64,000 bases of DNA from a virus (lineage: Duplodnaviria > Heunggongvirae > Uroviricota > Caudoviricetes). Where the stretch lies: the IMG/VR virus record IMGVR_UViG_3300049215_000772, positions 64,001 to 128,000 of that record; one strand, written 5' to 3'. Each line of letters begins with the position of its first letter. Position 1 is the first letter of the stretch. Shown piece after piece: positions 629-49,827 of this stretch. The notes under the pieces were generated by a model. The model saw only the letters and a list, made by a program, of their open reading frames with translations. It was not told the DNA's origin and ran no database searches. The position numbers and the translations under genes are program-made.

Positions 629-1011
629 CGAAAGCCGAGTTCGAGCGAGCCGTCAGACTTAGAGAAGAACCCCTTCTTTGTGAAGCGTTGTACTGGTTAG
701 TTGGCGAGTTGTACGATCACATTCACAAGAAACGACAGCCAACCATCGACCGGGACGACTGGCTTCAGGAAGGGGTTCTTCTTTGCTACGAGAGGTTGAA
801 TAGGCATCCGATGCCCTGGGGTTTCTTCCCTGAAATCTACGACCCATTCCCAATGGGTGCAGAAGTCAAATCATATGAACAAACCAACTTGTTCAGGATG
901 TTTACCACCATTCTTGCCGGGCATTTCCAACAGATAACCAGGAAGCCGAAAAACTACAACCATTTGAAGGCGAAGTACAAGTCTTTCCTCAAGAATCGCA
1001 CTTCCCCGTAG
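625..1011 (+). CDS. T4 gp55-like late sigma factor (short)
   Basis: DRDDWLQEGVLLCYERL...NLFRMFTTIL..HFQQI parallels the gp55 pattern REDMISDGIENCL...NPFAYFTQI..AFLRRI. Confidence 0.55.
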   Translation: MTKAEFERAVRLREEPLLCEALYWLVGELYDHIHKKRQPTIDRDDWLQEGVLLCYERLNRHPMPWGFFPEIYDPFPMGAEVKSYEQTNLFRMFTTILAGHFQQITRKPKNYNHLKAKYKSFLKNRTSP

Positions 1012-1327
1012 AGATCGTCGGCAGCAGGCCCGGCGTCCACGTCTGTCCGTAAAATCGACGAAACTCGTCATCCGTCATTTCAGGACCGAGTTTTCTCGAA
1101 TCCATGCCATGTTTCTTGTACCAATTCACTACGTCATCAGCCGCATGAGTTTTCATATCATCATCGGTGATCGGGCGCAGTTCATAGGTGCTGCCTTCTT
1201 CTGAGCCATTTAACGGGCTGGTCGTCATATCCATGTAGTTGCCCATATCGTACTTCACGGGTGGCGGTACGCCATCTGTGTAGGGCTTGCCATTGATCTG
1301 ATCCCAAAACTGCAAGAAACTTTTCAC
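989..1327 (-). CDS. hypothetical protein with MKSFLQFW N-terminus (capsid-targeting-like)
   Basis: 112-aa ORF, GTG start preceded by GAGGAG. Confidence 0.6.
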   Translation of the reverse strand: MKSFLQFWDQINGKPYTDGVPPPVKYDMGNYMDMTTSPLNGSEEGSTYELRPITDDDMKTHAADDVVNWYKKHGMDSRKLGPEMTDDEFRRFYGQTWTPGLLPTISTGKCDS

Positions 1328-1549: not shown

Positions 1550-2754
1550 GAATCTTCAAGGGTCGCCCATTTAACCCAGGCGACAAGAAGCCGATTGAAG
1601 TTGAAGAACAGATGGAGGACGTTAAGTTCAACGTCTACAAGTTCAACGCCAGGCGCAAGCCAGATGACAAAAAACAAATCATCGTTATCACCAATTTCTC
1701 GGAGTTCGGTTGCGAGTCTATTGCCTTGATGTACTGTATCCCTCGCATCCTCAAGATGTATCCGGGTGCCTATTTCATCGGCGTTGGTTGGTATGGACGT
1801 GAATATCTCTACCGTCATCTGGTTGATGAGTTTTGGGAGATCAAGGAGGAACATCAGTGGCTTCGTGAATACTCCCGTGCCTTCTCTCACGAAAGCAAGA
1901 ACCTTGCCAGGATTGAGAAGAACCTCGCCAGTTTCGGCCAGGTACTCTCCGGTGCCTACTTTGGCCACATCTGCCTGGGGAACACTTGTAGGAAGTGTAA
2001 GCATTTTTGGGGCGATGAACACTACGTTCCACGCTGCGTCGAGTGTGGTTCTACCGACGTTGAACGATCTTTGTTTGGTGATATTCCGCACTACCGGCAG
2101 GAAGCCGTCAACATTCCGAAGCCCGGACATGCCATGATCGAGAAGGCGAAAACCTACATCAACCAGAGCAAGTGCAGGACTTCTTCCGGTGATAAATGCG
2201 TTGGTATCTTCGCCCGTGGGCGGCAGTGCTACGGTCGGAACCTCCCACCAGAGTTCTACAGCAAGTTGATTGACCGTCTGGATATGTGGGGCTACAAGGT
2301 TATTTGGCTGGGGGAGAAGCAAAGTACGATCCCTGTGCCAGAAAATCACAGGGATCACGTTTTCGACTTCAGCCGTGACCCAGCCTCTCGTGACCTGGAG
2401 TTGACGCTGGCCCTCATCAGTCAGTGTGCTTTCACGGTCCAGTTCTGGACAGCCAGCACGAGGTTGGCGGCGATGATGGATGTACCGTGGATTTTGTTTG
2501 AAAGTCCCGACCAGATTGTTGGCCAGGGTCAGGAAGGAATGCGGATTGCGCTGACAACAGCGGAAAACAAGAAGAAGTTGATCTTGGCTCATTACCTCAA
2601 TGTGTTGAATGACCACGAGGGAGCGCTGGGATTGTTGGAAACTGCCGTGAAGGAGATGTGGCAGAACAAATGGGGCGATATTGTGGGCATGGTTGAGAAT
2701 GTTGACTTGGTGAAATCCATGCTTCAGAAAAAAATTGAGTGGGGGAGCAGGTGA
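1546..2754 (+). CDS. GT-B glycosyltransferase, GT9/heptosyltransferase-like, with CxxC..CxxC insert
   Basis: start moved to ATG 1546 (ATGA overlap); GCESIALMYCIPRI, VIWLGE, LELTLALISQCAFTV..TASTRLAAMMDVPWILF resemble GT9 motifs. Confidence 0.6.
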   Translation: MRIFKGRPFNPGDKKPIEVEEQMEDVKFNVYKFNARRKPDDKKQIIVITNFSEFGCESIALMYCIPRILKMYPGAYFIGVGWYGREYLYRHLVDEFWEIKEEHQWLREYSRAFSHESKNLARIEKNLASFGQVLSGAYFGHICLGNTCRKCKHFWGDEHYVPRCVECGSTDVERSLFGDIPHYRQEAVNIPKPGHAMIEKAKTYINQSKCRTSSGDKCVGIFARGRQCYGRNLPPEFYSKLIDRLDMWGYKVIWLGEKQSTIPVPENHRDHVFDFSRDPASRDLELTLALISQCAFTVQFWTASTRLAAMMDVPWILFESPDQIVGQGQEGMRIALTTAENKKKLILAHYLNVLNDHEGALGLLETAVKEMWQNKWGDIVGMVENVDLVKSMLQKKIEWGSR

Positions 2755-3890
2755 ACGTATCGGAATTTCTCAAACGAACAGCAGAACGAAATGGCTTCTT
2801 GCGTGAACGCTACGAGGAGCGGCGGGTCACTACGGACACAGAAAACATCACGGTGATGCCGTTTTTTGGCGACTATCGCAGTACGTTTTTGCTGTCTAGT
2901 TGGTTTCTGCATCGTTTCAAGGAGCAGCAGAAGGTAGGCAAATACTTCATTTTCGTTTCCTGGCCAGGCTTTCAAAGTTTCTTCCCCTATGTTGATGAAT
3001 ACTGGTCTTTGTCCGAGGAATCCCAGGTCAAGAAAATGTGGCTGGGAGCAGATGGTTTTCGCAACCGTTCCGATCTGGCAACCATCTACCAACGCAACTT
3101 GTATGAATACTTCAGGGATGTTGTTGATTGGCGCACAGTGGTCGAGCCTTACTACTACGGCGGTATCACACAGCAGTTTTGGGATACCTACAAGAACTTG
3201 AGGGTGTTTCTGCCGCACATCCCGTCCAGTGCTATTTTGGGGCGAGAATTAAACAAGGATTTGGCTACCAAGGCCGGGTACAAAGTGTTCATTCATCCGT
3301 TGCAGTTTTGCCAATCTTGGAGGAACGGCAAAAACGAAAATCAGTCGCTCAAGAAGGAGTTTTGGGCTGAGTTGGTGAAGCGACTGAGAAAGGATGGGTT
3401 TGTGCCTGTTGTGTGGCAAACGCAAATTACCCATGATTTGTCGGCAGAATTTACCAACGAGTGCTTATACATAAGTGACAAGGATGTTAGCAAGGTGTTA
3501 TCAACAATGCGAGCTTGCGGCTGTGTTCTCGACTTGTTCGGGGGTTTGTCGAGGCTTGCGATAGCTGCCAGATGTCCGTATCTGGCGCTAGATGAGAGGA
3601 GTCGGTATGCCGGCCTGAAGGAGCAGGAGGTAGACGACTTGTGCGGAAAAGAAGTGCCGAAGTCGTATATTTTTACGTTTAGCACTATTATATCTGACGG
3701 CACGGCACATAGTTGGAACGAAACTTTGTTCAACAACATCACGAACAGGTTGAATTCCTTCTTGCCTGGATTGAACCGTGATGACTGGCCTTCTACGGGC
3801 GAATCGAATGAGATCGTCTTGTACGATAGTGTGCGGAAAACCAAGAACAAGAAAATAGGAGCAAGGCTCCTAAAAGTCATGAGAGATTGA
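2739..3890 (+). CDS. second GT9-like glycosyltransferase paralogue
   Basis: FFGDY, VFIHP, LSTMRACGCVLDLFGGLSRLAIAARCPYLAL. Confidence 0.55.
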   Translation: MGEQVNVSEFLKRTAERNGFLRERYEERRVTTDTENITVMPFFGDYRSTFLLSSWFLHRFKEQQKVGKYFIFVSWPGFQSFFPYVDEYWSLSEESQVKKMWLGADGFRNRSDLATIYQRNLYEYFRDVVDWRTVVEPYYYGGITQQFWDTYKNLRVFLPHIPSSAILGRELNKDLATKAGYKVFIHPLQFCQSWRNGKNENQSLKKEFWAELVKRLRKDGFVPVVWQTQITHDLSAEFTNECLYISDKDVSKVLSTMRACGCVLDLFGGLSRLAIAARCPYLALDERSRYAGLKEQEVDDLCGKEVPKSYIFTFSTIISDGTAHSWNETLFNNITNRLNSFLPGLNRDDWPSTGESNEIVLYDSVRKTKNKKIGARLLKVMRD

Positions 3891-8296: not shown

Positions 8297-8325
8297 TTTA
8301 CAACCGCCCGAAATTGAAGTATGAT
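8297..8325 (+). promoter_or_regulatory. sigma70-type early promoter
   Basis: TTTACA-17 nt-TATGAT. Confidence 0.75.
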
Positions 8326-8353
8326 TGTCTTGCACGCTGAGGGTGGAGGAAAT

Positions 8354-9412
8354 ATGAAGAAAGTATTCACGACGGGCCTGTTGATTTTTGCGATGTTGTT
8401 CCTGGCATCTGCTGATGTGCAGGCGCAGCGGAGCTACAGCAGCAGGTCGTCAAGTTTCAGCAGCAAACCTTCATCTACATCTGGTAGTAGCTTCGGCAGA
8501 ACCTACAGCAGTGGCGGCAAGTCTGTCACGCAATCCAGTGGGAAGTCGTATTCCAATGGGCCGAAGCAATCTTCCGGCCCGGCTGCAACATCGCCTAGCG
8601 GGAGAACATTTTCTACTGGTTCGCCCCCGGCGAAGGTCGCCCCGGCCCAGCCATCAACTCCCCCGGCCTCGAAGTACACCAACGGTCCTCCGAAGACTGG
8701 ACCGCCAGCGGCCTCGAATAACAGCAGCAAGCCGGCGAGCAAGGGTTGGAACCCTGGTTTGAGCGCAGCGGCGCAGAAGGAGCAAAGCAGGCAGGCGTAT
8801 CAGAAGGCCACGCAGCCGGCAGCGACACCGAAGCCCACTTACAGATCGTCTACGGGCGTGGAGAAGCCACTGAACCCGCAGGCTCCGCAAGTGCAAACTG
8901 TTCGCCGCTATGTTACGCACGAGCGCTATGTCACTTACGAACACAGGGCCACGGTTTTCTATGGACCGTATTATGCCCACCCGGTATACTACAACGACTG
9001 GTACAGCCCTTTCATCATGGGTTACTTGCTCTCGGCGTCGGTGAATGCCAACGAGCGTGCTTATTGGGTCTACTGCCATCGAGCAGACATGGACCAGGCT
9101 CGCTACAATGAATTGTTGGCGAAAGATGCCGAGTTGTCGGCCCGGCTGAGGGTTTTGGAGAACAAGCAGGCTGCTGTCGATCCCAATTTCGTCTTGCCGA
9201 GCATGAGGGATAACCCGGACTTGCAGTACAGTCACGATTTTGTGACGGCGACCTACAATCCGCAATCTGTTCCGCCTGCTGGCGGCGGCGATGATGGGGA
9301 AGAACACGATCACAGTGGCGTCGGCCACTTCTTCTTCTGGTTCTTCGTGGTGATTTTGATCCTGGGCGTGGTTGCCTTGTTCGTGTGGCTGATGTTCGTC
9401 AAGGAATGGTAA
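8354..9412 (+). CDS. secreted, C-terminally membrane-anchored Ser/Gly/Pro-rich protein
   Basis: signal peptide MKKVFTTGLLIFAMLFLASADVQA, low-complexity region, Tyr-rich domain, C-terminal TM; GGAGG RBS. Confidence 0.8.
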   Translation: MKKVFTTGLLIFAMLFLASADVQAQRSYSSRSSSFSSKPSSTSGSSFGRTYSSGGKSVTQSSGKSYSNGPKQSSGPAATSPSGRTFSTGSPPAKVAPAQPSTPPASKYTNGPPKTGPPAASNNSSKPASKGWNPGLSAAAQKEQSRQAYQKATQPAATPKPTYRSSTGVEKPLNPQAPQVQTVRRYVTHERYVTYEHRATVFYGPYYAHPVYYNDWYSPFIMGYLLSASVNANERAYWVYCHRADMDQARYNELLAKDAELSARLRVLENKQAAVDPNFVLPSMRDNPDLQYSHDFVTATYNPQSVPPAGGGDDGEEHDHSGVGHFFFWFFVVILILGVVALFVWLMFVKEW

Positions 9413-9443: not shown

Positions 9444-10130
9444 ATGAAGCTGTATGAATTGATTCTGAGGAAGATTGGGTGGTGGCCGAAAGACCCGCCC
9501 TTGGAGGCGAAGGTTTACAATCCCGTCTCCGAGAAGGCTGACAAGCCTTGTAAGGTCGGGTCCGCCGTGAGTATCGACAATCTGGACTACCGGAAACTTC
9601 AGTTCGTCGTGAAGGAAATCCGTGAAAACAGTGTGTCGATGGGCGGTGGGTTGAACAAGTTCACCGACTACGCTCTCCAGGCCAGGAACGGCAGCGGTGG
9701 GGACGTTTGGGTTCGCCTGCGTCTCATTCCTGATCCAGACACAACCACCAGGTTGTCGCATCGGGCTATTGTGCTGTCCTTGTACGACGAGATGGCCTAC
9801 AACGAGGGGCTTCACGGCGTTGTGAAGGATGAATCCGGCAAGTTCGTTGTGGACGACAAAGATGTTCATGACGAGTTCTGGCGGGTCAACGACGTGAAGA
9901 TGTCGTACACGTCCGATGTAACGTCCATGAAGGACGAAAACAACGATGGGAGGATTGACCCCAATGAAGTGAAGCACGAGCAGGTGGAGTTTTGGGATTT
10001 TTCCAGGATGACTACCATCGAAGGTGTCGAAGTCGAACAGTTCGTCTTCGTCGAAATGAACAAAGAAAACGGGTGGTTCCAAATCTGGAGAGGAACCGAC
10101 ATCAACCCTGAGAGCGTGAGCGTGTACTAA
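9444..10130 (+). CDS. DUF2491/DUF4178-like beta-rich protein (PspA partner)
   Basis: beta-strand-rich sequence (FTDY, EFWDF, GWFQIWRG); position between the anchored protein and PspA. Confidence 0.5.
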   Translation: MKLYELILRKIGWWPKDPPLEAKVYNPVSEKADKPCKVGSAVSIDNLDYRKLQFVVKEIRENSVSMGGGLNKFTDYALQARNGSGGDVWVRLRLIPDPDTTTRLSHRAIVLSLYDEMAYNEGLHGVVKDESGKFVVDDKDVHDEFWRVNDVKMSYTSDVTSMKDENNDGRIDPNEVKHEQVEFWDFSRMTTIEGVEVEQFVFVEMNKENGWFQIWRGTDINPESVSVY

Positions 10131-10161: not shown

Positions 10162-11025
10162 ATGACTCCTCTGTTTGCATTCGGATTTTTTGAGATCGGC
10201 ATTGGTGCCCTGATCGTGGTCGGTCTGATCGCCGTGTTCAACTTCCGGGCGCTGAAGCGATTGTTCAGTGCCGGGAGTGTCCAGGTCGGCAAGATCGGAC
10301 GCTGGGCCAGCGAGAAAGACCCCCTGGCCGTGTACCAGGAGCGGATCGACGAGGGCACGGAGAAGATCGCCAAGGGTCGGCAGTTTTTGGGACAGGCGGG
10401 CGGTGAAGTACGGTCGGCCAAGCGGTCGGTGACGGAACTTCAAACCGAAGCCGTTCGCCTCAACAATCGCATCGACACCGCTGAGAAGGCGGGCGATCCC
10501 AACCACACCCTGGAGGGTTACGCCCTCGAACTGGCCGACGTGGAAGAAAAGCTGGGCCACGGGCCGCAGGGCGGCTGGAACTTCGATGGCAAGGAATGCA
10601 AGTTCGTTCAGACCCAGGAATCGCAGTGGTCCACGGAAGACCAGGGCACGGGCGCTCTCGGTCGGTTGTTCCGGGCGCAACTGAGGTTCGACAACTTCAG
10701 TGCCCAAATCCTACAGGGCCAGGAACAGATCGAGACGGCCCGCAAGGAGGCTCGTGACCTTGGTATGGAACTCCAGCAAAGCCAGCACGAGAAGGAAATG
10801 AACGAATTCGCCAACAGCTTCGACCCGTCCAGCTTCGGTTCGGACGACACCCTGAAGGCGGCTCGTGACAAGCTGAAGCAGCAGATCGACGACAACCGTG
10901 GTTCCGGCGATGCCAACGCCGCCCTCAACGTCAAGGCGTCGAGCCGGGCCAAGGATGCCCAACTGGAGCGGTCGGCACGGGCACAGGAAATCCTGGCCCG
11001 CCGCAAGAAGCCGGCTGAGGCGTAA
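10162..11025 (+). CDS. PspA/IM30 (ESCRT-III-like) protein with N-terminal TM
   Basis: DPLAVYQERIDE, long coiled coils, C-terminal ARAQEILARRK. Confidence 0.75.
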   Translation: MTPLFAFGFFEIGIGALIVVGLIAVFNFRALKRLFSAGSVQVGKIGRWASEKDPLAVYQERIDEGTEKIAKGRQFLGQAGGEVRSAKRSVTELQTEAVRLNNRIDTAEKAGDPNHTLEGYALELADVEEKLGHGPQGGWNFDGKECKFVQTQESQWSTEDQGTGALGRLFRAQLRFDNFSAQILQGQEQIETARKEARDLGMELQQSQHEKEMNEFANSFDPSSFGSDDTLKAARDKLKQQIDDNRGSGDANAALNVKASSRAKDAQLERSARAQEILARRKKPAEA

Positions 11026-11115: not shown

Positions 11116-12096
11116 ATGCGAAACTTCTACAGATACCTTTATGAGCGCTCGATTGTCGATCAACAACGGCGCATTGCCTATTTGATGGTGGAACAGGGTG
11201 TCAATCCGTACCGACACATTCAACACTACCTTGATTCTCAGCCTATCAATGAAGGTATTTTTGGCAATTTCTTTCAGCGCATCGGCAACGCCTGGCGTGC
11301 TTTCTGGAAGAACCCCAACCCCGAAGATTCCCCAATCACTCGCCTGGAAACCGCCAAAAAAGCGTTGGGCGAGCTACAACAAATGGTCCAACAAAACCAG
11401 GGAGCCGAGGCCGATGTCCTGGGTACGGTCCTGCGTGGCCTGGAACAATCGCTGACCATCATTAACAAGGTTGAGCCAACCATCCGAGATATGAGCGGTA
11501 GGATGCAGCAGTTTGCCCAGGATGGCATTGCCGGTAACGATCCGATGTACCAGTTGCCAGATGCCCAAAACAAACAATGGCATCAGATTATGGGCGAACT
11601 GGATGCTATCTTGAAGGAACCTGACAGCGAGCAGAAGTTGCAGAAGATTGGGCAGAATAGGGAGAAGTTCCTACAGTTCAAGCAACAGTTGGAGGATGAG
11701 TACCAGAAGATGGCTCCTGATCCTAACAACCAGGACAAAAAGCGTTTGGAGAATTTCTTGAGGCGTATAGATACTGATGCGTCATTCAGGGAAATCGAAG
11801 CGTTGATGGATTTTGCCCGGAGACGTGCAGGCAACACCGGCATGATGGTCGTCAAGCCTCAAGGCTATGAGGAAGTAATTGCTGCGTGGCGGCAGATTGC
11901 AAGAACAACGAGGGATGAGAATCAACAACGGGCACAATTGATAGCCTGGTACAACAAGCTACCCGCAAACCATCGCATCAGACAATTCATTCAAGGTGAG
12001 ATGCAAAATGTACCAGGGAAAAATGAGGCCGACTTGTTCTATGATTATGCTCATCAGTGGATAAATAAGTACGCTCATCACTTAACGGGAATGTAG
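11116..12096 (+). CDS. alpha-helical Gln-rich protein, candidate internal virion protein
   Basis: MRNFYRYLYE N-terminus; INE/G site. Confidence 0.75.
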   Translation: MRNFYRYLYERSIVDQQRRIAYLMVEQGVNPYRHIQHYLDSQPINEGIFGNFFQRIGNAWRAFWKNPNPEDSPITRLETAKKALGELQQMVQQNQGAEADVLGTVLRGLEQSLTIINKVEPTIRDMSGRMQQFAQDGIAGNDPMYQLPDAQNKQWHQIMGELDAILKEPDSEQKLQKIGQNREKFLQFKQQLEDEYQKMAPDPNNQDKKRLENFLRRIDTDASFREIEALMDFARRRAGNTGMMVVKPQGYEEVIAAWRQIARTTRDENQQRAQLIAWYNKLPANHRIRQFIQGEMQNVPGKNEADLFYDYAHQWINKYAHHLTGM

Positions 12097-12103
12097 AGGT
12101 AAT

Positions 12104-12532
12104 ATGGACGATTTTCAGTACAAACTCAAACGAATTTTGTTCGAGGCCGAAGAAGCGGAACTAACACCCATTGGTGCGCCCGACAAATTCAACATCGGCC
12201 ATCACGATACCGGCATGAAGAAAGCCGGCGAGAGTGGTGCTGCTTCCGAGGTTATTCAAAAGCATTTGGAGGCTCAGGCTTTCGAGTTTAAGAAGCTGAA
12301 AACGGCTTATGATGAGTTGGTGAAAACCGTCAATGAAGTCTTCAGCAAGTTGGGTACTTATGGCATCGAAGACAAGGGCTTCATGAAGGGCAAGATGCAG
12401 CCGATGGCCGTACCGCCTCATCTTCAGCAGCAGGGTCAGCCTTCTGGCGCTTCTACAGCACAAGCTATGGGTCAAAGTGCTTTCCGCCAGAGAATGCAGA
12501 CGCCGATCACCCCCAACGTGGACGATCTATAA
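12104..12532 (+). CDS. hypothetical protein, candidate internal virion protein
   Basis: GAGG RBS; MDDFQYKLKRILFE/AEE. Confidence 0.7.
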   Translation: MDDFQYKLKRILFEAEEAELTPIGAPDKFNIGHHDTGMKKAGESGAASEVIQKHLEAQAFEFKKLKTAYDELVKTVNEVFSKLGTYGIEDKGFMKGKMQPMAVPPHLQQQGQPSGASTAQAMGQSAFRQRMQTPITPNVDDL

Positions 12533-12540
12533 GGAGCAAA

Positions 12541-13275
12541 ATGAAGAAGAAAACCATTACAGAAGCAGACGCCCCAGCAGCCGCTCCGACGACCACGAAC
12601 ATTGGTCAGGAGTTTGCACAGGCGAAGAAGACCATCGGTGCTTTCTTGTCGAAGTTGGGACAGGCTTTCAACGAGTACGAAACTCGTCTCGGTCGTTTGA
12701 ACATGGCGTTGCAGCGTCAGATGGCTCCTTTGGCTGCCGGTGCCCAGGGCGCTTCCGACCGCATCAAGCAGTTGGAAGACGATTACGCAAAGCTGGAGCA
12801 GGACAGTGCCGAGGCTCTACGGAAGGCCAACGAAACGATTACAGATTTGAAGCGTCAATTGAAGGACGCTATGGCTTCTGGTTCTTCCCAGGGCGAGCAG
12901 TTGCGCATGGCGAATCAGGAACTTCAGCGTGCCGAGCAGACAATTGCCGACAAGCAGCAGGCCATTGAAGCCTATATCGAGAGGCTTTCCAAAGCTAAGG
13001 ATCGTATCCGGGCTGCTGCCGGTGCCCACGAGACTGACCGTGTTCAGTGGAACCAGCAGATGGATGCTTACGAGCAGCAGATCGACGAGTTGCGGAAGAA
13101 GAACGAAGAATTGGTGAAGCTGGCAGATGACGCTGTGGCTCGCTTCAACGAACTTTTGGCTGGTACTACAAGAACCGTAGACCAGGCGCACACGAAGCAC
13201 TATGGAGGCTTCGACCTCAAGGAACACCTGGAGAGGGCACGGAAGAAACAAGGGGTCACGGAAACTTGGTTCTGA
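12541..13275 (+). CDS. long coiled-coil protein, candidate internal virion protein
   Basis: AAGGAG RBS; MKKKTITE/AD; heptad-rich. Confidence 0.75.
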   Translation: MKKKTITEADAPAAAPTTTNIGQEFAQAKKTIGAFLSKLGQAFNEYETRLGRLNMALQRQMAPLAAGAQGASDRIKQLEDDYAKLEQDSAEALRKANETITDLKRQLKDAMASGSSQGEQLRMANQELQRAEQTIADKQQAIEAYIERLSKAKDRIRAAAGAHETDRVQWNQQMDAYEQQIDELRKKNEELVKLADDAVARFNELLAGTTRTVDQAHTKHYGGFDLKEHLERARKKQGVTETWF

Positions 13276-13317
13276 TGTAATATATACCGAACCAAGACGG
13301 GATAGGACATCGTGGAT

Positions 13318-13355
13318 AGAGGGGAGTTGTCAGATGGCAACTCCCCTCTCTTTTT
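13318..13355 (+). terminator. rho-independent terminator
   Basis: AGAGGGGAGTTG-N8-CAACTCCCCTCT-C-TTTTT. Confidence 0.85.
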
Positions 13356-13366
13356 GCGCTGGGAGG

Positions 13367-13373
13367 CTATATA
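13367..13373 (+). promoter_or_regulatory. putative late promoter box CTATATA
   Basis: 5 nt before ATG 13379; forms the loop of a GGAGG/CCTTC hairpin. Confidence 0.5.
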
Positions 13374-13378
13374 CCTTC

Positions 13379-13597
13379 ATGTTCCAGAAATTTGCAGAAT
13401 GGTTGAAGGTTCGAGAAACCACAGCTTTTACTCGATTAAGACGTGATTCAGCCAAGGGCTTGAAACCGCCTATTGCGGATTTTGACTCCCATTCCACTCC
13501 ATCTTGGGGTGGCGATTGGGAGCGCAAACAATTGGTGAAACATTTCAATGCTTCTCACAAGAAGCACAAACACAAGAAGGATGAAGACGATGAATGA
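13379..13597 (+). CDS. small protein, MFQKFAEWLKVRE N-terminus
   Basis: start moved to ATG after the terminator and late box. Confidence 0.6.
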   Translation: MFQKFAEWLKVRETTAFTRLRRDSAKGLKPPIADFDSHSTPSWGGDWERKQLVKHFNASHKKHKHKKDEDDE

Positions 13598-13997
13598 CAT
13601 GAAAACTTTCAGCGAATGGCGGAAGGGCCGTCCTGCCATGCGCAAACCAAGAAAGCCATCGGTGAAGAATCCATCTATTGACGCCTTCGTGAAGTCCGTG
13701 GATAGTTTGAAGAAGGATATGGATCAGCTTGATGCGGTTGAGAAGAAAGTCAAGCCGAAGCCGGAAGGGAAACCAGAAGAAAAACCGGACGACAAGAAAG
13801 CCTTCAACAGCTTCAAAGATTACAAGAAGAAGCGTGATTCCGAAGAAGGAAAGAATCAGGATGAGGAAGAAGACGATGATGAAGAAGGGCAGCAGCTTCC
13901 TGATGAGCCTGTAGAGCGGCCTCGTGTGTTGCCCAAGGCACCAGTGTTGCGACAAAAACTTCGCCGTCCAGTCAATCCCGAAGGAATGGAAGATTGA
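13590..13997 (+). CDS. highly charged protein, (MND)MKTFSEWRK N-terminus
   Basis: overlaps the previous stop; Lys-rich then acidic. Confidence 0.7.
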   Translation: MNDMKTFSEWRKGRPAMRKPRKPSVKNPSIDAFVKSVDSLKKDMDQLDAVEKKVKPKPEGKPEEKPDDKKAFNSFKDYKKKRDSEEGKNQDEEEDDDEEGQQLPDEPVERPRVLPKAPVLRQKLRRPVNPEGMED

Positions 13998-14531: not shown

Positions 14532-15001
14532 TGAACAAAGTGCGGCGCAAGAATTTCCGAGAAAACATAAACCAGGACGACTACTGGATGGGCCTAGCCT
14601 TCTGGATCGCCGCTGGCAGCCGGAACCCGACAAATCCCCAGGGGGCGGTGATTGTTGGGCCGCAGGGGAATTTATTGGCCCAGGGTTTTGACTGTCCGCC
14701 CAAGTGCATGTACGACGGCGAGTACATGCGTCCCGCTGAGAAGGCGGCGATTCAGGACACTAGGTTCGTCATTTTTACCGGATCGACCCTTTACACAACC
14801 CACACACCTTCGGCGGAAGCGATTCTCGATGTTGTTGCCGCCGACATCAAGCGTGTTGTTTATTTCCCAACACAGCCTCTCAGTCCAGCCGCACAAGAAA
14901 TTATCCAGCAAGCCTACGGACAGGTTCAGGAGTTCCGGGGGAATCTAAGCTGGATGCGAGATCATATTTCAGTCCTCAAGTCCCTGGGCGTATTTTCATG
15001 A
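14531..15001 (+). CDS. dCMP deaminase/ComEB-fold protein lacking zinc ligands (probably inactive)
   Basis: DYWMGLAF..A..S, GAVIV, G(F)D, LYTTH-P framework, but HAE reads PAE and PCxxC reads PSAEA. Confidence 0.75.
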   Translation: MNKVRRKNFRENINQDDYWMGLAFWIAAGSRNPTNPQGAVIVGPQGNLLAQGFDCPPKCMYDGEYMRPAEKAAIQDTRFVIFTGSTLYTTHTPSAEAILDVVAADIKRVVYFPTQPLSPAAQEIIQQAYGQVQEFRGNLSWMRDHISVLKSLGVFS

Positions 15002-15008
15002 ACGGGGG

Positions 15009-15015
15009 CTAAATA
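15009..15015 (+). promoter_or_regulatory. putative late promoter box CTAAATA
   Basis: 5 nt before ATG 15021 of a virion-type gene. Confidence 0.55.
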
Positions 15016-15020
15016 CGAGT

Positions 15021-16247
15021 ATGACATGCCACAACCTACATTGCTCGTACACTCCTCCCCACGGCTGCCACGAGTGCCCGCCGCCCGGAGTTTGTCCAGA
15101 CTTCACCATCCGTCGTCACGACACCAAACCAGCCTTCAAGGTACATATTGAAGATTGCGATGGTCCGTTCAATATGGATGGGCTAGTGCTGGAAGCGTCT
15201 ATGTGGGCCAGGGGCAGATTGAAGAAGGGTATACAGGCCACGGATAATTTTTTTGCACTCGCTGACAATATCGGGTTTGAGCAGATAATGGTTGGTGATA
15301 TAATAGTCGTGGACCGTCCTCGACTACCCGAACAAATGCTTGTGATCGGTTTTGATGAAGACAACTACCTGGTCGAAGTTCAACGAGGGTATCATGGGAC
15401 TACTCCGCAGTGTTGGAAGAAAGGAACCCATGTACGAATAATCAAGTTCATGGGAGCTACAGCGCAAACCGAGATGGTTTTTCAGGACGTGATTCAGATT
15501 GACGGAACAACTAGAAACGAACTGACCAACAGTTTCCTTGTTTACGAGTGGGGGCCAACAGACACATGCCTGGCGGGTTGCTACTTCTTGGAGTTTAAGT
15601 TGCTCAAGATGATTGATGTGCCGGCCCCAACGCCGCCGCCATCGACTTGTCCGTTCCCCAAAATCATTGGGAATCCTGGCCCACCGCAGCCTTATTGTGC
15701 CTATGGCCCACATCCGGGTGGAACAGTTTTCGGTCCAGCCGGACCTTATGTTCGTGATGGAGAAAGTTACTCCGCAGGGGCTTATGGAATTCCTGGAACT
15801 GATACCCCACCCGTGCCACCAATCCCGATGTCACGGGAAGAAAGGCGTGACGATGAAGTGTTGGAAGATGAATACCGTTACAACCCGGAAGCATTTCCTG
15901 GTCGTGATGGGTCTTTGGATGAGCAGCGAGTCGTGATTCCGCCGCAAACCGGAGGTAATTCGCCTGTGGCTCCGTTGTACCCGGAACCATTGAGTATTGA
16001 CGCAGGAGCGAATCCACAATACTACAATCCGGGAGGCGTGGAACAATTCTACATGCCGCATCTGCCGACAGATGTTCCAAGTTTCACGTCGCCTAGCTGT
16101 ATTACACCAAGTTTTACCAGTCCATCACTCACACCAACGGACTTTGGTTGTGGTCTTGGAGCGGGAGTCGAATGGGTGCGTCGATTCCCGGTGGATGGTG
16201 AAGGATTTTTGATCCATATCACCGACAGCCCAACAGCAGAGTTATAA
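15021..16247 (+). CDS. BppU-like baseplate/tail Ig domain protein with Pro-rich insertion
   Basis: FTIRRHDTKP, YEWGPTDT..G.Y..EFK, RFPVDGEGFLIHI; also a QRGYHGTT tail-type motif. Confidence 0.6.
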   Translation: MTCHNLHCSYTPPHGCHECPPPGVCPDFTIRRHDTKPAFKVHIEDCDGPFNMDGLVLEASMWARGRLKKGIQATDNFFALADNIGFEQIMVGDIIVVDRPRLPEQMLVIGFDEDNYLVEVQRGYHGTTPQCWKKGTHVRIIKFMGATAQTEMVFQDVIQIDGTTRNELTNSFLVYEWGPTDTCLAGCYFLEFKLLKMIDVPAPTPPPSTCPFPKIIGNPGPPQPYCAYGPHPGGTVFGPAGPYVRDGESYSAGAYGIPGTDTPPVPPIPMSREERRDDEVLEDEYRYNPEAFPGRDGSLDEQRVVIPPQTGGNSPVAPLYPEPLSIDAGANPQYYNPGGVEQFYMPHLPTDVPSFTSPSCITPSFTSPSLTPTDFGCGLGAGVEWVRRFPVDGEGFLIHITDSPTAEL

Positions 16248-18464: not shown

Positions 18465-19753
18465 TGGAAATAATCATGGCTGACGAGGCTTATTTCCGCA
18501 AAGTAGTTGAACTCCAAACAGAGTTCTTCAAGCGGTTGGAAACTCGTGACTCTCAACCAAGGGCCATGCCGCCCTCGTTGCTCGTTCGTTTGTTGGAATG
18601 CGATGACGAAATAATCGACTTGTCGCTCGGCAACATCGGACGGCGATTGAAAGGTTTTGCTGAGGAAGTGGATTTTACGCACCCTGATCTCTACACCATC
18701 TTCGATGGCGCATTGGTTGACGGGGCTGATTTCTCACAGGACTGCTTGGAATTGCTGTCGCTGGCCGAATTCGCCCGCAGCAAGCAACTGGTCCGCATCA
18801 TGCCGATGCTTGGCAAAATCATTACCAGGGAGTCGCTGGGCCGTAACGTCGTCCGCCGCATCGACAGCCCAGCCAGTGTCCGTATGCACGTTCGTTTGTT
18901 GAAAGACCCTGACGAGCGTGAAGAAATCCGTTCCACCAAGAAGATGCAGGTGATTGACCTGACATCCATCTACAAGAAGGGTGAGGACGCCTGGCGTGCC
19001 CAGCCTGACAACTTCCGCAGGTTCCTGCGTTTCGACACAGCCTACCAGGATGAGATCGCCAGGGCTGAGAAGAAGGCCACACGCTACAACGCCCTGGGCT
19101 GTTCGGCGCTGGCTGAAGAAATCATGAAAAGCGTGGAAGCCTTCCGTGAACACATGGACCAGGCTTACTATGGATTCAATCGCATTACTATGACCAATGC
19201 TGCCGTGGTGTTGGCGAAGTCCCTTGGCTACATCTACAACCCGCCCCCAGCCGGTGCGTTGTTCGCCAAAGATGAGCAGGCCGGCAAGATCGTGGTTTCC
19301 AGGAAGTTCTTCGGAAACTACAACTTCGACCCGGCCCACAACCCCATTGAGTATTCACCCATTGTCAGTGAGTCGGCTGGCACTCCTGTCTTCACCCAGC
19401 GGTATGCCCTGCCATTCCTATACGAACCTCGTGTATATCCATTACATCAGTTTTGGGATATTGCTCCTGAAGGTGTCCTGAAAACAGTTAGAACGCTGGA
19501 ATGCTTCCCGGATGCTGATGACAAGCCGATCTTCGATCACTTCGGCTTGATCGTGCCTAGCATCGGTTTCCCACCAGCGTCGAGTGAAGAAACTTACTCG
19601 TTTATCGACGATAAGGGGTTGTGTCGAACCTTCTCTCAGCGTGAGTCTGCGATGAAGGAACTGGACACCATCTTGATTCGCAATGGCCATTTCCATCCCA
19701 TTATCGTCGGAGAGAAAGATGGAAAGTGCTATTTTATTTCTTATTGGGTTTGA
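18464..19753 (+). CDS. hypothetical phage protein
   Basis: start moved to ATG 18464; C-terminal FDHFGLIVP...HPIIVGE....YFISYW. Confidence 0.75.
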   Translation: MEIIMADEAYFRKVVELQTEFFKRLETRDSQPRAMPPSLLVRLLECDDEIIDLSLGNIGRRLKGFAEEVDFTHPDLYTIFDGALVDGADFSQDCLELLSLAEFARSKQLVRIMPMLGKIITRESLGRNVVRRIDSPASVRMHVRLLKDPDEREEIRSTKKMQVIDLTSIYKKGEDAWRAQPDNFRRFLRFDTAYQDEIARAEKKATRYNALGCSALAEEIMKSVEAFREHMDQAYYGFNRITMTNAAVVLAKSLGYIYNPPPAGALFAKDEQAGKIVVSRKFFGNYNFDPAHNPIEYSPIVSESAGTPVFTQRYALPFLYEPRVYPLHQFWDIAPEGVLKTVRTLECFPDADDKPIFDHFGLIVPSIGFPPASSEETYSFIDDKGLCRTFSQRESAMKELDTILIRNGHFHPIIVGEKDGKCYFISYWV

Positions 19754-23580: not shown

Positions 23581-24117
23581 ATGCAGTCTTTCAAGATAAC
23601 CAAAGAAGAGTTGTTGAAGTTTGCCGAGCGCCTCTATAGTGAAGGGTGTTTCGGTTATTTTGATCTTTGTGAAGCTACAGCAGATAGGATGGTAACGGAT
23701 TTCCTTGACGGGAGAGAACCTATCACGCCTAGTATTTTGAGTCAGGCTGGTTTTGCTCCAAGTGTTAGTTTCGCTACCGGCCCAACTGTTACTGTTGCTC
23801 CACAAGGACTCAGCATTGACCCGGCTGGCCCGCCTCCCGCAGTTTGGGGAGGAGTAGGACCGATGATGGGTGGGGTTAATGTTCCAGTTCACGGCAGCAA
23901 CCAATCGGTGAGCATCACGGTGTCTGGCGGCGGTCCTCCGATGACCGACAGCGAGTACCGAGGTCACGGCGATGTTTCTCTTCCTCCATCGGGTGCGCCA
24001 GAAACAGCGGTTGGGAGTTCTTCAGATGGAATAATCATCATGGAAACTCCTGTAATTCGTGAAGAAGTTTTCACACGTCAAGAAAACTTTGTTGGAAATC
24101 CATCGGAACGCATTTAA
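23581..24117 (+). CDS. hypothetical Pro/Gly-rich protein
   Basis: RBS, 178 aa. Confidence 0.65.
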   Translation: MQSFKITKEELLKFAERLYSEGCFGYFDLCEATADRMVTDFLDGREPITPSILSQAGFAPSVSFATGPTVTVAPQGLSIDPAGPPPAVWGGVGPMMGGVNVPVHGSNQSVSITVSGGGPPMTDSEYRGHGDVSLPPSGAPETAVGSSSDGIIIMETPVIREEVFTRQENFVGNPSERI

Positions 24118-25900: not shown

Positions 25901-26248
25901 TCAAGCCATCATGCACTTGGTAATGATCGACGGGTAGTCACTGTGATCGTCGTCTCGCCGCTGGAAGACGACGATCATATTTTTTCCCCTTTCTGGTTTC
26001 CCTTCAATTCTTCTGTATTCGTCATGCGTAAGGAATAGCTTCGTTCCATCCGACAATCCGATGTAAATCGGATTTTTTTTGTCAAGAATATGTTCGATGC
26101 GGGCGGTTTTGCGCACTGTGGGTAGGCCCAGGTCAATCTTGGGCAGCATGGAGGCGATGTCTTTGGTCCAGTGTTCCGGGACCATGATAGCTCCGTGCTT
26201 CTCGACGTACTCGCTCAGTGATATGAAGTCTGCGAAATTCGTTTCCAT
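25901..26248 (-). CDS. hypothetical protein, METNFADFISLSE N-terminus
   Basis: CTAAATA box at 26265-26271 on the minus strand. Confidence 0.7.
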   Translation of the reverse strand: METNFADFISLSEYVEKHGAIMVPEHWTKDIASMLPKIDLGLPTVRKTARIEHILDKKNPIYIGLSDGTKLFLTHDEYRRIEGKPERGKNMIVVFQRRDDDHSDYPSIITKCMMA

Positions 26249-29220: not shown

Positions 29221-29423
29221 TGGCTAACTTCAAAATATACGAAGAAATGTTGACTGAATATAACTTCGTGGACGACTTTCAGAAGCCGAACGAGTTGTTC
29301 GAGGCGGAAGCCGACTCCCCTGATGAGGCTTATCGTCAATTTGTTGAACAATTCCCCCACAAGGCCCGCACGCAAGTTATTGTGAAGTCCGGTCGGCTTG
29401 AGAAGCGTTTCGGTCATGACTGA
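29220..29423 (+). CDS. hypothetical protein
   Basis: TAATG overlap. Confidence 0.55.
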   Translation: MANFKIYEEMLTEYNFVDDFQKPNELFEAEADSPDEAYRQFVEQFPHKARTQVIVKSGRLEKRFGHD

Positions 29424-29904
29424 CCTTGCCTTGGGGCACTTTGTTCTTGATGAAGGCCATCCATTCAGGGTGGTGGTAGATGATTAGCTTATGCTTGGCG
29501 TAACAGCAAGCATAAGACATGCAGAAGATTTCTTCGGGGTCTTGGTCCAGGGCGTCGGTCTTCTGAGTTTTTTCCACTTGTTTGGCGTGGGCGTTTTTTG
29601 TTTTCTTGACGAGATCGGCCCACTCCTTCTTGAGTTGTGGCGTCATCAGGTACTCGTAGACCAAGTGGGCAATTTCATGTAACGTCGTGAATTCACGTCC
29701 GTAATTCCACGGCGCAGCTACAGTGATCTTGTCCTTGTAGATCAGCCCAATGTTGCCTTTATCACCTTTCATGGTGTTGCCAGGCTGGTACTTGAACTTG
29801 TAACCATCAAGCAGTTTGGCGTGGCCTGCCGGCAACTTCCGAATCATGGCTGAGACATTTTCTTCTTCTTCGGTTTCCAGAAGGAAATCTTTGAATGTTG
29901 TCAT
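29377..29904 (-). CDS. zincin-like metallopeptidase with capsid-targeting-like N-terminus
   Basis: MTTFKDFLLE; TTLHEIAH (HExxH); downstream PEEIFC. Confidence 0.75.
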   Translation of the reverse strand: MTTFKDFLLETEEEENVSAMIRKLPAGHAKLLDGYKFKYQPGNTMKGDKGNIGLIYKDKITVAAPWNYGREFTTLHEIAHLVYEYLMTPQLKKEWADLVKKTKNAHAKQVEKTQKTDALDQDPEEIFCMSYACCYAKHKLIIYHHPEWMAFIKNKVPQGKVSHDRNASQADRTSQ

Positions 29905-29925
29905 GATGATATATAGCTGTAGAAT
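29898..29925 (+). promoter_or_regulatory. sigma70-like promoter for the downstream ncRNA
   Basis: TTGTCA-16 nt-TAGAAT. Confidence 0.5.
29910..29916 (-). promoter_or_regulatory. putative late promoter box CTATATA
   Basis: 5 nt before ATG 29904, no SD sequence. Confidence 0.5.
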
Positions 29926-30406: not shown

Positions 30407-30976
30407 ATGGCACGGAAGATCATTTGCACCGTTCCTCAAGGTGCCATCAAGACAGAAGTTCTTGATGTAAGACAAAACACCAACTTTTCTTGCGGCGCTG
30501 CCGCACTTCATGCTGTTTGTGCATATTGGGGCGTCGGACCAGAAAGTGAATACGACTACATGAAGTCGCTTCACTCCGATCCCAGCATGGGTACGACCCC
30601 GCAACACATCATTGAATATGCAAAGCATCGTGGTTTGAAAGTTGATGCGAGGGATTGTATGACTGTTTTGGACCTGAAGACCCATCTCGACAAGGGCCGT
30701 CCCGTCATCGTTCTCATTCAGGCGTGGGGCGACAAGAAGCGCTATCGAGACTATGATGAGAATGGACACTATGTCGTGGCTATTGGCTACGACGATAAGC
30801 GAATTTACTTCGAGGAGCCTGTAATGTTGGGACACCGGGCATTTCTCACCTACAAGGAGTTCGACGAGCGTTGGCACGACGAGGACGCTTTTGGTAGGAA
30901 GTATATTCGTTATGGCATGGCTATGTGGAAGAAAGGAAAGCCGAGCCTGATTCATCAGGCAGAAAAGATCGGTTGA
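30407..30976 (+). CDS. C39-like papain-fold cysteine peptidase
   Basis: QNTNFSCGAAAL, GHYVVAIGYD, YFEEP. Confidence 0.85.
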   Translation: MARKIICTVPQGAIKTEVLDVRQNTNFSCGAAALHAVCAYWGVGPESEYDYMKSLHSDPSMGTTPQHIIEYAKHRGLKVDARDCMTVLDLKTHLDKGRPVIVLIQAWGDKKRYRDYDENGHYVVAIGYDDKRIYFEEPVMLGHRAFLTYKEFDERWHDEDAFGRKYIRYGMAMWKKGKPSLIHQAEKIG

Positions 30977-39435: not shown

Positions 39436-40107
39436 ATGACTTTGCGGGAGGGTTGCTGGGGTATGAAAGCCAAGTTTGGTCCCAACAAAGAGTTCAAGCA
39501 GTCTTATTCGCTGCCTCCGGTCGGAAACTTCGCCTTGGAAGTAGAGCCGCCGAAGACTCCTCATTGGGATCACTGTCGGGAGCAGTTTGCTTCCAAATTC
39601 AACGAAACTGTGCAGGGTTTCTACTACTCGGTGCATCCGGGCACTTGTGAAGATGTGGCCGAGTTCTTGGCGAAATGTGAAGAAATTGTCGGGATTGATG
39701 TTCGATCCTCGTATTGTAAGACTGACAAGAGTACAATACTATGGATTGCTCCTAGTTCGTTCTGGCTCGACTGCGATATGAAGCGTTCGTTCCTAACCAT
39801 GATGTTGCGGTGCGGGCTGAACTACAACAAGGAGAAGGACAATTTCGATGAGGCTTTGTTCTCCGAAGTTTTCAAGGAGAACAAATGGGCGAGGGAAACC
39901 AAAGCCGCAACGATGCGGTTCTTGTTTGGTTTCACTCGCTGGATGGATCAGCGTTCAAAGGAACGAACGCCATATGAAACCAACAAACATGGTTGGCACG
40001 AAGAGTTCTCCAGGATGGATAATCTTGGTATCCGTAAGAAGTTGGCCCTGCCAGAAGGCGAAGTGAGAGAAACCTCCATAATCGGGGTTGAGTCACTTTG
40101 GGCATAA
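39436..40107 (+). CDS. hypothetical protein
   Basis: CTACATA box at 39423-39429, 6 nt before ATG. Confidence 0.7.
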   Translation: MTLREGCWGMKAKFGPNKEFKQSYSLPPVGNFALEVEPPKTPHWDHCREQFASKFNETVQGFYYSVHPGTCEDVAEFLAKCEEIVGIDVRSSYCKTDKSTILWIAPSSFWLDCDMKRSFLTMMLRCGLNYNKEKDNFDEALFSEVFKENKWARETKAATMRFLFGFTRWMDQRSKERTPYETNKHGWHEEFSRMDNLGIRKKLALPEGEVRETSIIGVESLWA

Positions 40108-40164
40108 TATCCAATAAATTTTGTGTTATAGGTTAAAAAAGAACGGGCACAACCAGGGTGAAGA

Positions 40165-40464
40165 ATGAAATCAGTTACAACAGAAAATTTCACCCAGGAA
40201 ATCGACGCACCATGCCTTGCCTATTTTTGGGCGGCATGGTGCGGCCCGTGTTTCAATCAGGAAGAAGAACTTAAAATCTTGGAGAAGGAATTCCCCAAGA
40301 TCGGCTTCCTGAAAATCAACTGCGACGAGAACCACCAATTGGCAAACGATCACAACATCATCGCCGTGCCTACGACGATTCTATTCAAGAACGGCAAGGT
40401 GGTTCAACGACTCGCTGGAATGCAGAAAGTTAGTGCGATGAGGGAAGCGTTGAAAAAACTATGA
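40165..40464 (+). CDS. thioredoxin
   Basis: WAAWCGPC, cis-Pro VPT. Confidence 0.9.
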   Translation: MKSVTTENFTQEIDAPCLAYFWAAWCGPCFNQEEELKILEKEFPKIGFLKINCDENHQLANDHNIIAVPTTILFKNGKVVQRLAGMQKVSAMREALKKL

Positions 40465-49356: not shown

Positions 49357-49790
49357 TGCTCGCATTTCGTTGCCAGTGTGGGTGTCTTCAAGGTTGGTTC
49401 GATCATCCCGATGTGATGAAAATCGAGAAGTTCGACCAGCAGTGGAAGCCCATGTTCACTGGTGGAGTCACCACTTGGAATTGTCCGCAGTGTGGGCAAG
49501 AGCATCAACGGGATCATATTCCTAGCCTTCGCCCGGCAACCAAGGAAGAAATCGACGAGGTTGCCTACTACTTGTGGGACGAAGCTGGCAGGCCAACCAG
49601 TGATGGCAAAGAATTTTGGTATCTGGCTGAAACAAAGTTGAAGAAAGGCGTGCCGAGCAAGCCACTCTACAAGGAGGAGTGGGTTGGTCCTTGTTCTTGT
49701 GGGAAGCCACTTGGTAATTCGCCATTCTCCTACTGTCTCGATTGTGCTAAGAAGAAGGACAAGAAGGAAAAGAAGTCCAAGAAGGAGTAA
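49356..49790 (+). CDS. zinc-finger protein with central DUF2934-like motif
   Basis: IDEVAYYLWDEAGRP.SDG.EFWYLAE flanked by CxC/CxxC motifs. Confidence 0.7.
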   Translation: MLAFRCQCGCLQGWFDHPDVMKIEKFDQQWKPMFTGGVTTWNCPQCGQEHQRDHIPSLRPATKEEIDEVAYYLWDEAGRPTSDGKEFWYLAETKLKKGVPSKPLYKEEWVGPCSCGKPLGNSPFSYCLDCAKKKDKKEKKSKKE

Positions 49791-49827
49791 TCGCTGCGAT
49801 TTTTCCCACAGAAGGGTAAATACAGCG

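Follow-up and report, generated by a model that had tools for sequence, protein, structure and literature searches.

Leaders resembling the T4 capsid-targeting sequence at the N-termini of a conserved gene cluster and other proteins of an uncultivated huge phage

Why should several neighbouring proteins of a huge phage begin with short sequences that recall the signal by which bacteriophage T4 addresses proteins to its prohead? The question is raised by positions 11116-13997 of a 64,000-nucleotide (nt) stretch of tailed-phage DNA (the window), which corresponds to bases 64001-128000 of a 134,115-bp IMG/VR record (G000; CheckV gives it as 27% complete, which implies a genome size near 500 kb). 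A preliminary description of the window had reported there a cluster of proteins with T4 capsid-targeting-like N-termini and prohead-protease-type sites, and the N-termini that it quoted, with starts at 11116, 12104, 12541, 13379, 13599, 29904, 26248 and 1327, are all present in the sequence (Table 1). We incline, with a confidence only a little above even, to the view that the common element is a T4-type capsid-targeting leader, which would be cut after a conserved Glu where this residue is present. This view is built on sequence comparison and on the analogy with T4, and several other explanations have to be weighed against it.

In T4, the first 10 residues of the internal protein IPIII form a capsid-targeting sequence (CTS) that suffices for packaging, residues 4 and 7 (Tyr4, Phe7) being mainly concerned with targeting and residues 8 and 10 with processing (PMC9026906, section 2.6, a review of studies from the Black laboratory); an Asp at position 10 blocks cutting and not targeting, and gp21 cuts after L/I-x-E (PMC9026906). 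Both IPII and IPIII have the N-terminus MKTYQEFIAE. Another start, MKTFKEF, which the preliminary description attributed to a T4 internal protein, is in fact that of gp61.1 (18966-19130, minus strand, 54 aa), a protein annotated as hypothetical that begins with MKTFKEFIKE, ends in a lysine-rich tail and is not recorded as a head protein.

The leader in the huge phage, which is short and amphipathic, can be written as Met, 1-4 residues, an aromatic residue (F/Y), two residues, a second aromatic (F/W/Y), an aliphatic residue and, 0-4 residues later, Glu. A genome-wide motif scan, as proposed in the preliminary description, finds it enriched at N-termini above shuffled sequences. Genes were called with a simple codon-usage model (174 genes in G000, with crude starts), and the null was provided by 300 composition-keeping shuffles of each N-terminus. 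The exact T4-register pattern, ^M..[FY]..[FWY][LIVM].E, occurs in 4 of the 174 genes against 0.08 expected (shuffle maximum 2), and a looser pattern in 8 against 1.05 (shuffle maximum 4). The strict core [FY]x[DEQ][FW][LIVM] is found 12 times in the called proteins of G000, 6 times within 5 residues of a start candidate, with 6% of positions eligible (binomial P=3e-5). All four T4 positions are occupied as in T4 by MKSYQDWLTE, MKTFAQFLAE, MTTFKDFLLE and MRNFYRYLYE, so that the resemblance noted at the outset is a specific one: the positions conserved are the same four as in T4 IPIII.

When small uncalled open reading frames (ORFs) and looser cases are included, we count 17 leader proteins on the 134 kb, of about 185 genes (roughly one in eleven). 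All 17 begin at a start codon and have the motif inside residues 2-15. The aromatics stand exactly at positions 4 and 7 in seven of them, a pair of the same spacing is shifted by 1-4 residues in eight, and two (12104 and 12541) have no pair; the exact register at all four positions is kept in 4/17, and Glu follows the pair by 0-4 residues in 12/17. The proteins that carry the leader are otherwise unrelated, with 0 non-self BLASTP hits at E<=0.01 among the 17 once their first 16 residues are removed. Of the nine leader proteins shorter than 120 aa, eight would be basic once cut at the putative site (isoelectric point, pI, 8.7-10.1). A homologue detectable by BLAST in a 340-kb relative of the phage (G001, 69% complete, 48% identity in the 326-aa protein of the cluster) exists for 4 of 15 leader proteins, versus 80 of 174 genes overall.

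The same pipeline was applied to other genomes. In G001, the loose pattern is found 10 times versus 2.2 expected. In LR756511.1, an uncultured huge phage, it is found in 29 of 925 genes versus 4.5 (maximum 12), and the exact pattern 6 times versus 0.31; one of the leader genes encodes a 58-aa protein with a start like that of the 72-aa protein of the window. T4 itself yields three exact matches (ipII, ipIII and gp61.1) versus 0.09, and four loose ones versus 1.20. A T4 match of the regular expression at 114210, which had been taken for gp67, was dropped, since the annotation places this position inside uvsW. The negative control was RaK2, a jumbo phage that has a gp21-type S77 protease: here the exact pattern is found 0 times versus 0.26 expected and the loose one twice versus 2.96. 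With no leader enrichment in RaK2, this phage cannot serve as a link from leader proteins to a published virion proteome.

These numbers leave very little room for chance, or for a compositional bias of phage N-termini sharpened by the freedom in choosing starts, which we regard as the least credible of the explanations considered here. It is true that the gene calls and their starts are crude, that several matches use an internal ATG and not the longest ORF, and that the enrichment is weaker in a six-frame analysis (9 of 28 cores after a Met, P=4e-4). However, the shuffles keep the composition and still fall far short of the observed counts, RaK2 shows nothing in the same pipeline, and orthologues from independent assemblies share the Met of the leader.

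The leader is kept in orthologues. The 72-aa basic protein has 29 cluster representatives at E<=1e-3 in an exhaustive HMMER search, and the 30-row alignment has the leader Glu in 30 rows, the Trp in 28 and a Ser immediately after the Glu in 25 (orthologues begin, for instance, with MALLSFKDWRSSLGEA and MALISFKDWRLSLGES); the putative mature part of the window protein has a pI of 9.5. The 175-aa protein with an HExxH motif has 154 homologues; among the 120 listed, 116 carry the aromatic pair and a Glu within their first 25 residues, and the leader Glu is present in 104 of 105 alignment rows. In the alignment of this family (A3), conservation is 90% or more at F4, E10 and E12 and complete at H76, E77 and H80. 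The Glu of the putative protease sites is kept, then, in these two families; it is not conserved in the 326-aa family, and the strict T4 cleavage rule does not hold (see below).

In the 326-aa family it is the rest of the signal that is kept. Eleven homologues were found, and F4, an aromatic residue at 7 and L/M/I at 8 are present in all 7 that have a full N-terminus (alignment A1), residue 10 being E, D, S, D, G, A and D in these sequences. The AlphaFold model of this protein consists entirely of helices, with a mean predicted local distance difference test (pLDDT) score of 58 that is too poor for a structure search. A single-sequence IMG/VR search gave no relatives, a search of LR756511.1 and LR756508.1 with profile A1 gave no matches, and an ESM Atlas look-up gave nothing above the level of a lead. 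The 142-aa protein has a looser leader, with F4 and L8 and a residue at position 7 that is not aromatic; [ILM]-x-E-[AG] occupies residues 12-15 in 4 of 4 orthologues, and the N-termini of its positional orthologues are MNDFQDTLKRLLEAD (contig L047, from a metagenome), MKDFQQVLRMLMEGD (locus L008 of G001) and MKDFQDYLKTIIEGD (L045). The 115-aa protein encoded elsewhere in the window has an orthologue in G001 that begins with MKNNFKNYIDLIEC and is 55% identical overall. Finally, in a family represented by a 269-aa protein (G000 8321-9130), the aromatic pair followed by Glu is found in 113 of 120 members.

Could the selection act on the nucleotide sequence, the common N-terminal codons serving translation or regulation at the level of RNA? 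The idea deserves attention because of an element, tabulated below for two genes, that lies just upstream of several leader genes. The string CTATATA[CT], with an ATG 3-4 nt behind it, is found in five cases in G000 and G001, each time before a leader gene (the sites in G001 are 120341, 198946 and 230022). Elements of the CTATATA/CTAAATA type, of which LR756511.1 has many, lie 3-9 nt before the ATG of many leader genes, a distance that leaves no room for a Shine-Dalgarno sequence. A broader element, [CT]TA[ATG]AT[AT] within -22 to -3 of the start, precedes 7 of 19 leader genes versus 7 of 427 others in G001 (P ~1e-7) and 16 of 54 versus 47 of 871 in LR756511.1 (P ~1e-7). The CTA(A/T)ATA element resembles the T4 late promoter, TATAAATA, and CTATATAC, before the 72-aa gene, looks like a promoter -10 element placed so as to leave the messenger RNA (mRNA) nearly leaderless. 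Leaderless mRNAs read from a T4-late-like promoter may exist in this phage, which has genes for an IF3 and an S21-like protein of its own. The element is found beyond leader genes as well: of the 47 non-leader genes that have it in LR756511.1, 43 (those within a single locus) were scanned, and 15 matched a PHROG family, 3 of them structural; the non-structural families among the 15 include helicase, methyltransferase and thioredoxin.

We nevertheless consider it very unlikely, if slightly less so than chance, that codons abutting such leaderless starts are what is conserved. Synonymous codons differ among 12 instances of the motif (TTT/TTC; CTG/TTG/CTT; TGG versus TTT/TTC/TAC), and the residue classes are kept; the constraint therefore acts on the protein. 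Several leader genes have an ordinary Shine-Dalgarno sequence (AGGAGG before MTFKEWL, GGAG before MKTFAQFLAE), families at 40-50% identity still share the Trp, Phe and Glu, and the broader element precedes only 1 of 10 called leader genes in G000 versus 3 of 164 others, a difference that is not significant. Contigs from metatranscriptomes (four runs of one study, X5, X7, X9 and X11) cover parts of the region 8.1-14.5 kb at 99% identity or more, and one of them spans 11801-12632; this cover testifies to presence in RNA libraries and is not evidence of transcription, of starts or of timing, and the uncovered stretch 14532-15951 is uninformative.

The cluster itself consists of five co-directional ORFs separated by gaps of 7, 8, 103 and 1 nt, and its gene order and leaders are kept in G001 and in L047, which covers the end of the 326-aa gene onward (the genes further upstream are found also in G001 only). 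Pfam and PHROGs searches with the five ORFs gave no family, the 244-aa ORF giving only coiled-coil noise below the cut-off. The claim that this cluster is a set of leader proteins survives in part: the N-termini are there, and the strict aromatic core is found in only 2 of the 5 ORFs. The orthologue of the 244-aa coiled-coil protein in L047 begins with MKNKKIDEA, and the C-terminus of the window protein is homologous to the end of a 344-aa protein of L008 (E=2e-6). An equivalence between its ITEA and an internal ILEA of that 344-aa protein was seen by eye only and has been abandoned, as BLASTP aligns the C-termini alone.

The starts of the last two genes of the cluster, at 13379 and 13599, are those common to orthologues, which for the 132-aa protein begin with MNFSEWLIDEA (L008) and MELFSEWVLDEG (L047). 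The 72-aa protein has 29 relatives, and 12 to 14 of these are long forms, at 125-232 aa, with a second half that matches the 132-aa protein (residues 90-113 of P0155 versus its residues 27-50, E=2e-6; P0138, E=0.009). The 132-aa ORF therefore corresponds to the C-terminal half of what relatives make as one protein. In the three loci where the gene is split (the window, L008 and L047), the downstream gene starts with a leader of its own, whereas the junction of the long forms has no leader-like motif. To judge from these sequences, this fits an address tag that is needed at the N-terminus of each polypeptide, and the split may be read as a natural experiment for a signal acting per polypeptide; the three loci are related, so that possibly only one event took place.

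The surroundings of the cluster bring in a more serious competitor. Immediately upstream lies a gene (10162-11025, plus strand) for a 287-aa protein, with a transmembrane stretch at its N-terminus and then a long coiled coil, that is syntenic in relatives. Its G001 orthologue (L008:9083-9874) matches Pfam PspA_IM30 over profile positions 22-217 of 220, with E=1.1e-5 and 25.7 bits where the cut-off is 33.9, and PDB sequences gave no match; the product is a candidate phage-encoded PspA/ESCRT-III-like membrane protein. Further upstream (9444-10130, plus strand; L008:8319-9023) is a conserved 228-aa protein, starting with MKLYELILRKIG (MKLYELLLRKIG in G001). It shares the synteny of the cluster, and a faint EF-hand-like loop can be made out near residues 165-177.

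Accordingly, one may imagine that the leader is an N-terminal amphipathic helix with another job, at a membrane (to which the first helix of PspA/Vipp1 binds) or in docking to a hub of the host or of the phage, and that the cluster is a membrane module working with its PspA-like neighbour and is not packaged at all. We hold this to be rather improbable, though much less so than the two previous explanations. It has in its favour the transmembrane stretch and sub-cut-off family match of the neighbour, the synteny that G001 keeps between the PspA-like gene and the 132-aa gene, the helical or coiled-coil nature of the cluster proteins, the distance of 8-16 residues at which the motif of the 269-aa family can sit from the predicted start, and the lack of a protease or scaffold gene near the cluster. 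On the other hand, the hydrophobic face of such a helix would comprise just three residues, and acidic residues usually come after the leader (TEEEE, SEEE, or the near-invariant Glu), a combination that is unfavourable for binding to an anionic membrane. Furthermore, the positions conserved are exactly the four of the T4 signal, the motif also heads enzymes and unrelated proteins across three genomes, and the likeness between the leader and PspA's first helix is a presumed one.

Window genes are largely auxiliary: they encode S21-like protein, peptide deformylase, endonuclease VII, indoleamine dioxygenase, a thiamine pyrophosphate enzyme, IF3 and aldehyde dehydrogenase, as well as DnaJ, a Cpn10-like protein, dUTPase, PhoH, two sigma factors, NAD ligase and an E2/JAB/ThiF set, and gene orientation in G000 is mostly plus. 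The first 64 kb of the record contain a Gp23-family capsid gene (E=4.9e-21), gp32-like and RecA/UvsX-like genes, a ClpP-family protease and a terminase fragment. By the capsid-like gene, the nearest records are the uncultured huge phages LR756511.1 (595 kb, complete, 32.6% identity) and LR756508.1 (484 kb), followed by RaK2-type jumbo phages at about 21-23% identity; a blastn search with 7.9 kb found nothing that matches among 50,697 phage records. By its gene content, the lineage is T4-like, with T4-type genes (Gp23-family, gp32-like, RecA/UvsX-like). A gp21-type Peptidase_S77 is found above the cut-off in both LR756511.1 and LR756508.1, and the order in LR756511.1 is protease, a 310-aa coiled-coil scaffold-like gene (MNKFVEVLKNLLPE...) and the capsid gene (MSANAKFLNEA...). 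Just downstream of this capsid gene (locus L011 of LR756511.1, 5503-6000) we observed a 165-aa protein that starts with MLTWTEFLEA, a leader-like sequence with Trp at position 4, and whose body resembles a YbiA/NADAR-type domain; it is a candidate packaged enzyme beside the head module.

A number of observations weigh against the idea of a cleaved capsid address and should be stated together. Neither in G000 (27% complete) nor in G001 (69% complete) was a Peptidase_S77 match at E<=1 or a match to a T4-type portal found. The cluster is surrounded by auxiliary genes, directly after the PspA-like gene and not beside head genes. The Gp23-like gene of G000 (2737-3813) is not flanked by protease or scaffold genes, and may be a paralogue, because fragments closer to the capsid gene of LR756511.1 occur elsewhere in G000 and G001. 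Within the cluster, the 12541 protein has no aromatic pair, the window copy of the 132-aa protein has F4 and W7 without the aliphatic residue at 8 and the Glu at 10, and Glu 10 is found in only 1 of the 11 listed homologues of the 326-aa protein. The residue two positions before the Glu is aliphatic or Phe in 14 of 30 members of the 72-aa family, A/S/T in 14 and K in 2, and in the HExxH family it is F/Y in 81 of 105 and L in 22; with F/Y or A/S/T so often at this position, the strict L/I-x-E rule of T4 does not hold. If a protease cuts at the leader Glu, its specificity would then have to be wider than the T4 rule. As for the 269-aa family, 48 of the 113 members have the motif at a distance of 8-16 residues from their predicted start, and three of these 48 (P0246, P0253 and P0266) are on contigs of 1.2-7.6 Mb; this may reflect miscalled starts (the Phe is often preceded, two residues earlier, by a Leu codon), cellular or prophage genes, or a motif that is part of the fold.

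The capsid fragments just mentioned are on short ORFs, at 40274-40486 and 23709-23990 in G000 and at 124974-125126 in G001 (L010:1486-1743), and match the N-terminal or middle part of the major capsid protein of LR756511.1, the identity reaching 78% over 51 residues. A fractured capsid gene may be represented by these pieces, or they may be remnants. Around one of them (G000, about 40100-40900, before the window), a stretch of some 25 residues appears twice in the translated frames, which indicates a direct DNA repeat.

Taking both sides into account, we still favour the capsid-targeting leader, and by analogy with T4 we infer targeting, cleavage, packaging and injection along the following lines. 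The two aromatics would dock the new protein onto the scaffolding core of the prohead, a gp21-type serine protease would then cut after the conserved Glu, and the mature protein would remain in the head with the DNA. The cluster 11116-13997 would be a conserved operon of head-internal proteins: the 326-aa helical protein, probably targeted and not cut, since its Glu is not conserved (a situation with a precedent in T4), the 142-aa protein, the 244-aa coiled-coil protein, and the lysine-tailed 72-aa protein with its former C-terminal half, the 132-aa protein, under its own leader. On present sequence evidence, these proteins are best read as core, scaffold-like or DNA-binding proteins inside the head and not as obvious effectors. 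The preliminary description saw in the cluster a reservoir of anti-defence or host-takeover effectors, and here we disagree, as five syntenic proteins that are helical, coiled-coil or lysine-rich suit an internal or core role better. It also pointed to an internal TSE/GFTFRDW near 50590; the sequence exists, but its place is close to the C-terminus of ORF 49684-50640, 12 residues from the end, so that it is no N-terminal leader, and it bears no mark of a cut site.

A better candidate for an injected enzyme is the HExxH protein. In its model (pLDDT 81.8), residues 1-8 are below 50, that is disordered, and the model has weak fold matches to M34-type zinc peptidases (E 0.08-0.8, template-modelling score up to 0.5); one homologue has a precomputed Pfam ATLF match. 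Both sequence and model suggest that the product is probably a small zinc metallopeptidase. In the phage collection, the family is found in LR756511.1 only. Divergent from this gene is a Peptidase_C39-like gene (30407-30976, plus strand, E=9.5e-15), of the family that cuts bacteriocin leaders. A double-glycine leader cut by C39 was considered and rejected: Gly-Gly occurs in the first 30 residues of only 1 of the 17 leader proteins (MRTNLSGF..., residues 24-25, by eye), and as the leaders do not end in Gly-Gly the C39-like gene is not linked to them.

How does this system compare with those already known? It shares with the T4 CTS an N-terminal signal of about ten residues with aromatics at 4 and 7 and, in the exact-register cases, an aliphatic residue at 8 and Glu at 10, its occurrence on small, basic and otherwise unrelated proteins (the T4 internal proteins are described as highly basic), the tandem arrangement of genes away from head genes, and a Gp23-type capsid gene in the lineage. 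It differs in that Trp is common at position 7, that Met and the first aromatic are a variable 1 to 4 residues apart, and the aliphatic residue and Glu 0 to 4, and that F/Y or A/S/T often replaces L/I two residues before the Glu. Carriers are also far more numerous (about 17 on the 134 kb of this phage and 29 or more in LR756511.1, versus 3 regular-expression matches in T4), and no gp21-type protease gene was found on the 134-kb record. T4 gp61.1 is built like the small leader proteins described here, but has no homology to the 72-aa family beyond nine leader residues (hhalign probability 1%).

In the phiKZ-like giants (phiKZ, 201phi2-1, SPN3US), many head proteins are likewise trimmed after Glu by a diverged gp21 homologue, gp175/gp245 cutting the propeptides at S/A-x-E, and paralogues can share an identical N-terminal stretch (PMC5694885, PMC9026906). 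However, their propeptides are mostly longer than 100 residues and have no common aromatic motif, and the window phage is not phiKZ-like, having a Gp23-family capsid gene that places it nearest to LR756511.1 and, next, to the RaK2 type. DarB of phage P1 offers another parallel, its N-terminal segment being enough to bring a foreign protein into the capsid (PMC9024508), but more than 9 and fewer than 30 residues are needed, the Dar proteins have neither consensus nor cleavage motif, and the lineage is unrelated. In the literature searched, the T4 signal is discussed for T-even relatives and phiKZ-like phages, and the 15 best-ranked of 412 papers with at least two of the terms for a CTS or for huge phages, megaphages and metagenomes contain only terms of the second kind.

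Table 1. Leader-bearing proteins and promoter-like elements of the window (positions are those of the window)
Feature	Position	Strand	Remarks
MRNFYRYLYE protein, 326 aa, all-helical	11116..12096	+	ORF; F4, Y7, L8, E10 in exact T4 register
142-aa protein, MDDFQYKLKRILFEA start (MDDFQYKLKRILFE/A)	12104..12532	+	Looser leader
244-aa coiled-coil protein, MKKKTITE/A start	12541..13275	+	ORF; only I-x-E-A (I-T-E-A)
72-aa basic protein, MFQKFAEWLKVRET start (MFQKFAEWLKVRE/TTAF), lysine-rich tail	13379..13597	+	Internal ATG of ORF 13202-13597
132-aa Lys/Glu/Pro-rich protein, MKTFSEWRKG start	13599..13997	+	Internal ATG of ORF 13548-13997
115-aa protein, METNFADFISLSE/Y start	25901..26248	-	ORF
HExxH protein, 175 aa, MTTFKDFLLE/TEEEE start	29377..29904	-	Exact T4 register
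(M)KSFLQFWDQ protein, 112 aa, acidic, GTG start	989..1327	-	F4 and F7, without Glu; weak member
CTATATAC element	13367..13374	+	4 nt upstream of ATG 13379, in the 103-nt gap
CTATATAT element	29909..29916	-	4 nt upstream of ATG 29904

One may go further and propose, much more tentatively and as something that we regard as possible rather than probable, that the T4 address code has been scaled up in these phages to a general loading system which sends 3-9% of genes' products into the capsid, in which the splitting of a gene must duplicate the leader, and in which many of the genes are expressed from leaderless, T4-late-like CTA(A/T)ATA transcripts. The set loaded in this way would include the clade-wide zinc metallopeptidase-like protein and lysine-tailed DNA-binding proteins, and the leaderless transcripts might be connected with the IF3 and S21 genes of the phage.

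A T4-type signal is in itself already known, and the interest of the present case lies in its scale, in the clade concerned and in the ease of testing: these are short leaders that agree with the T4 signal in its determinants, and are therefore testable at once in the system for expression, packaging and processing that exists for T4. Nearly all that is known of huge phages comes from metagenomes, and the proteins carried in their capsids and injected are therefore not directly measurable. If the leader is a capsid address, the packaged proteome of an uncultivated clade would become readable from sequence, and this would provide a short list of candidates for the takeover of the host in the first minute of infection and for counter-defence.

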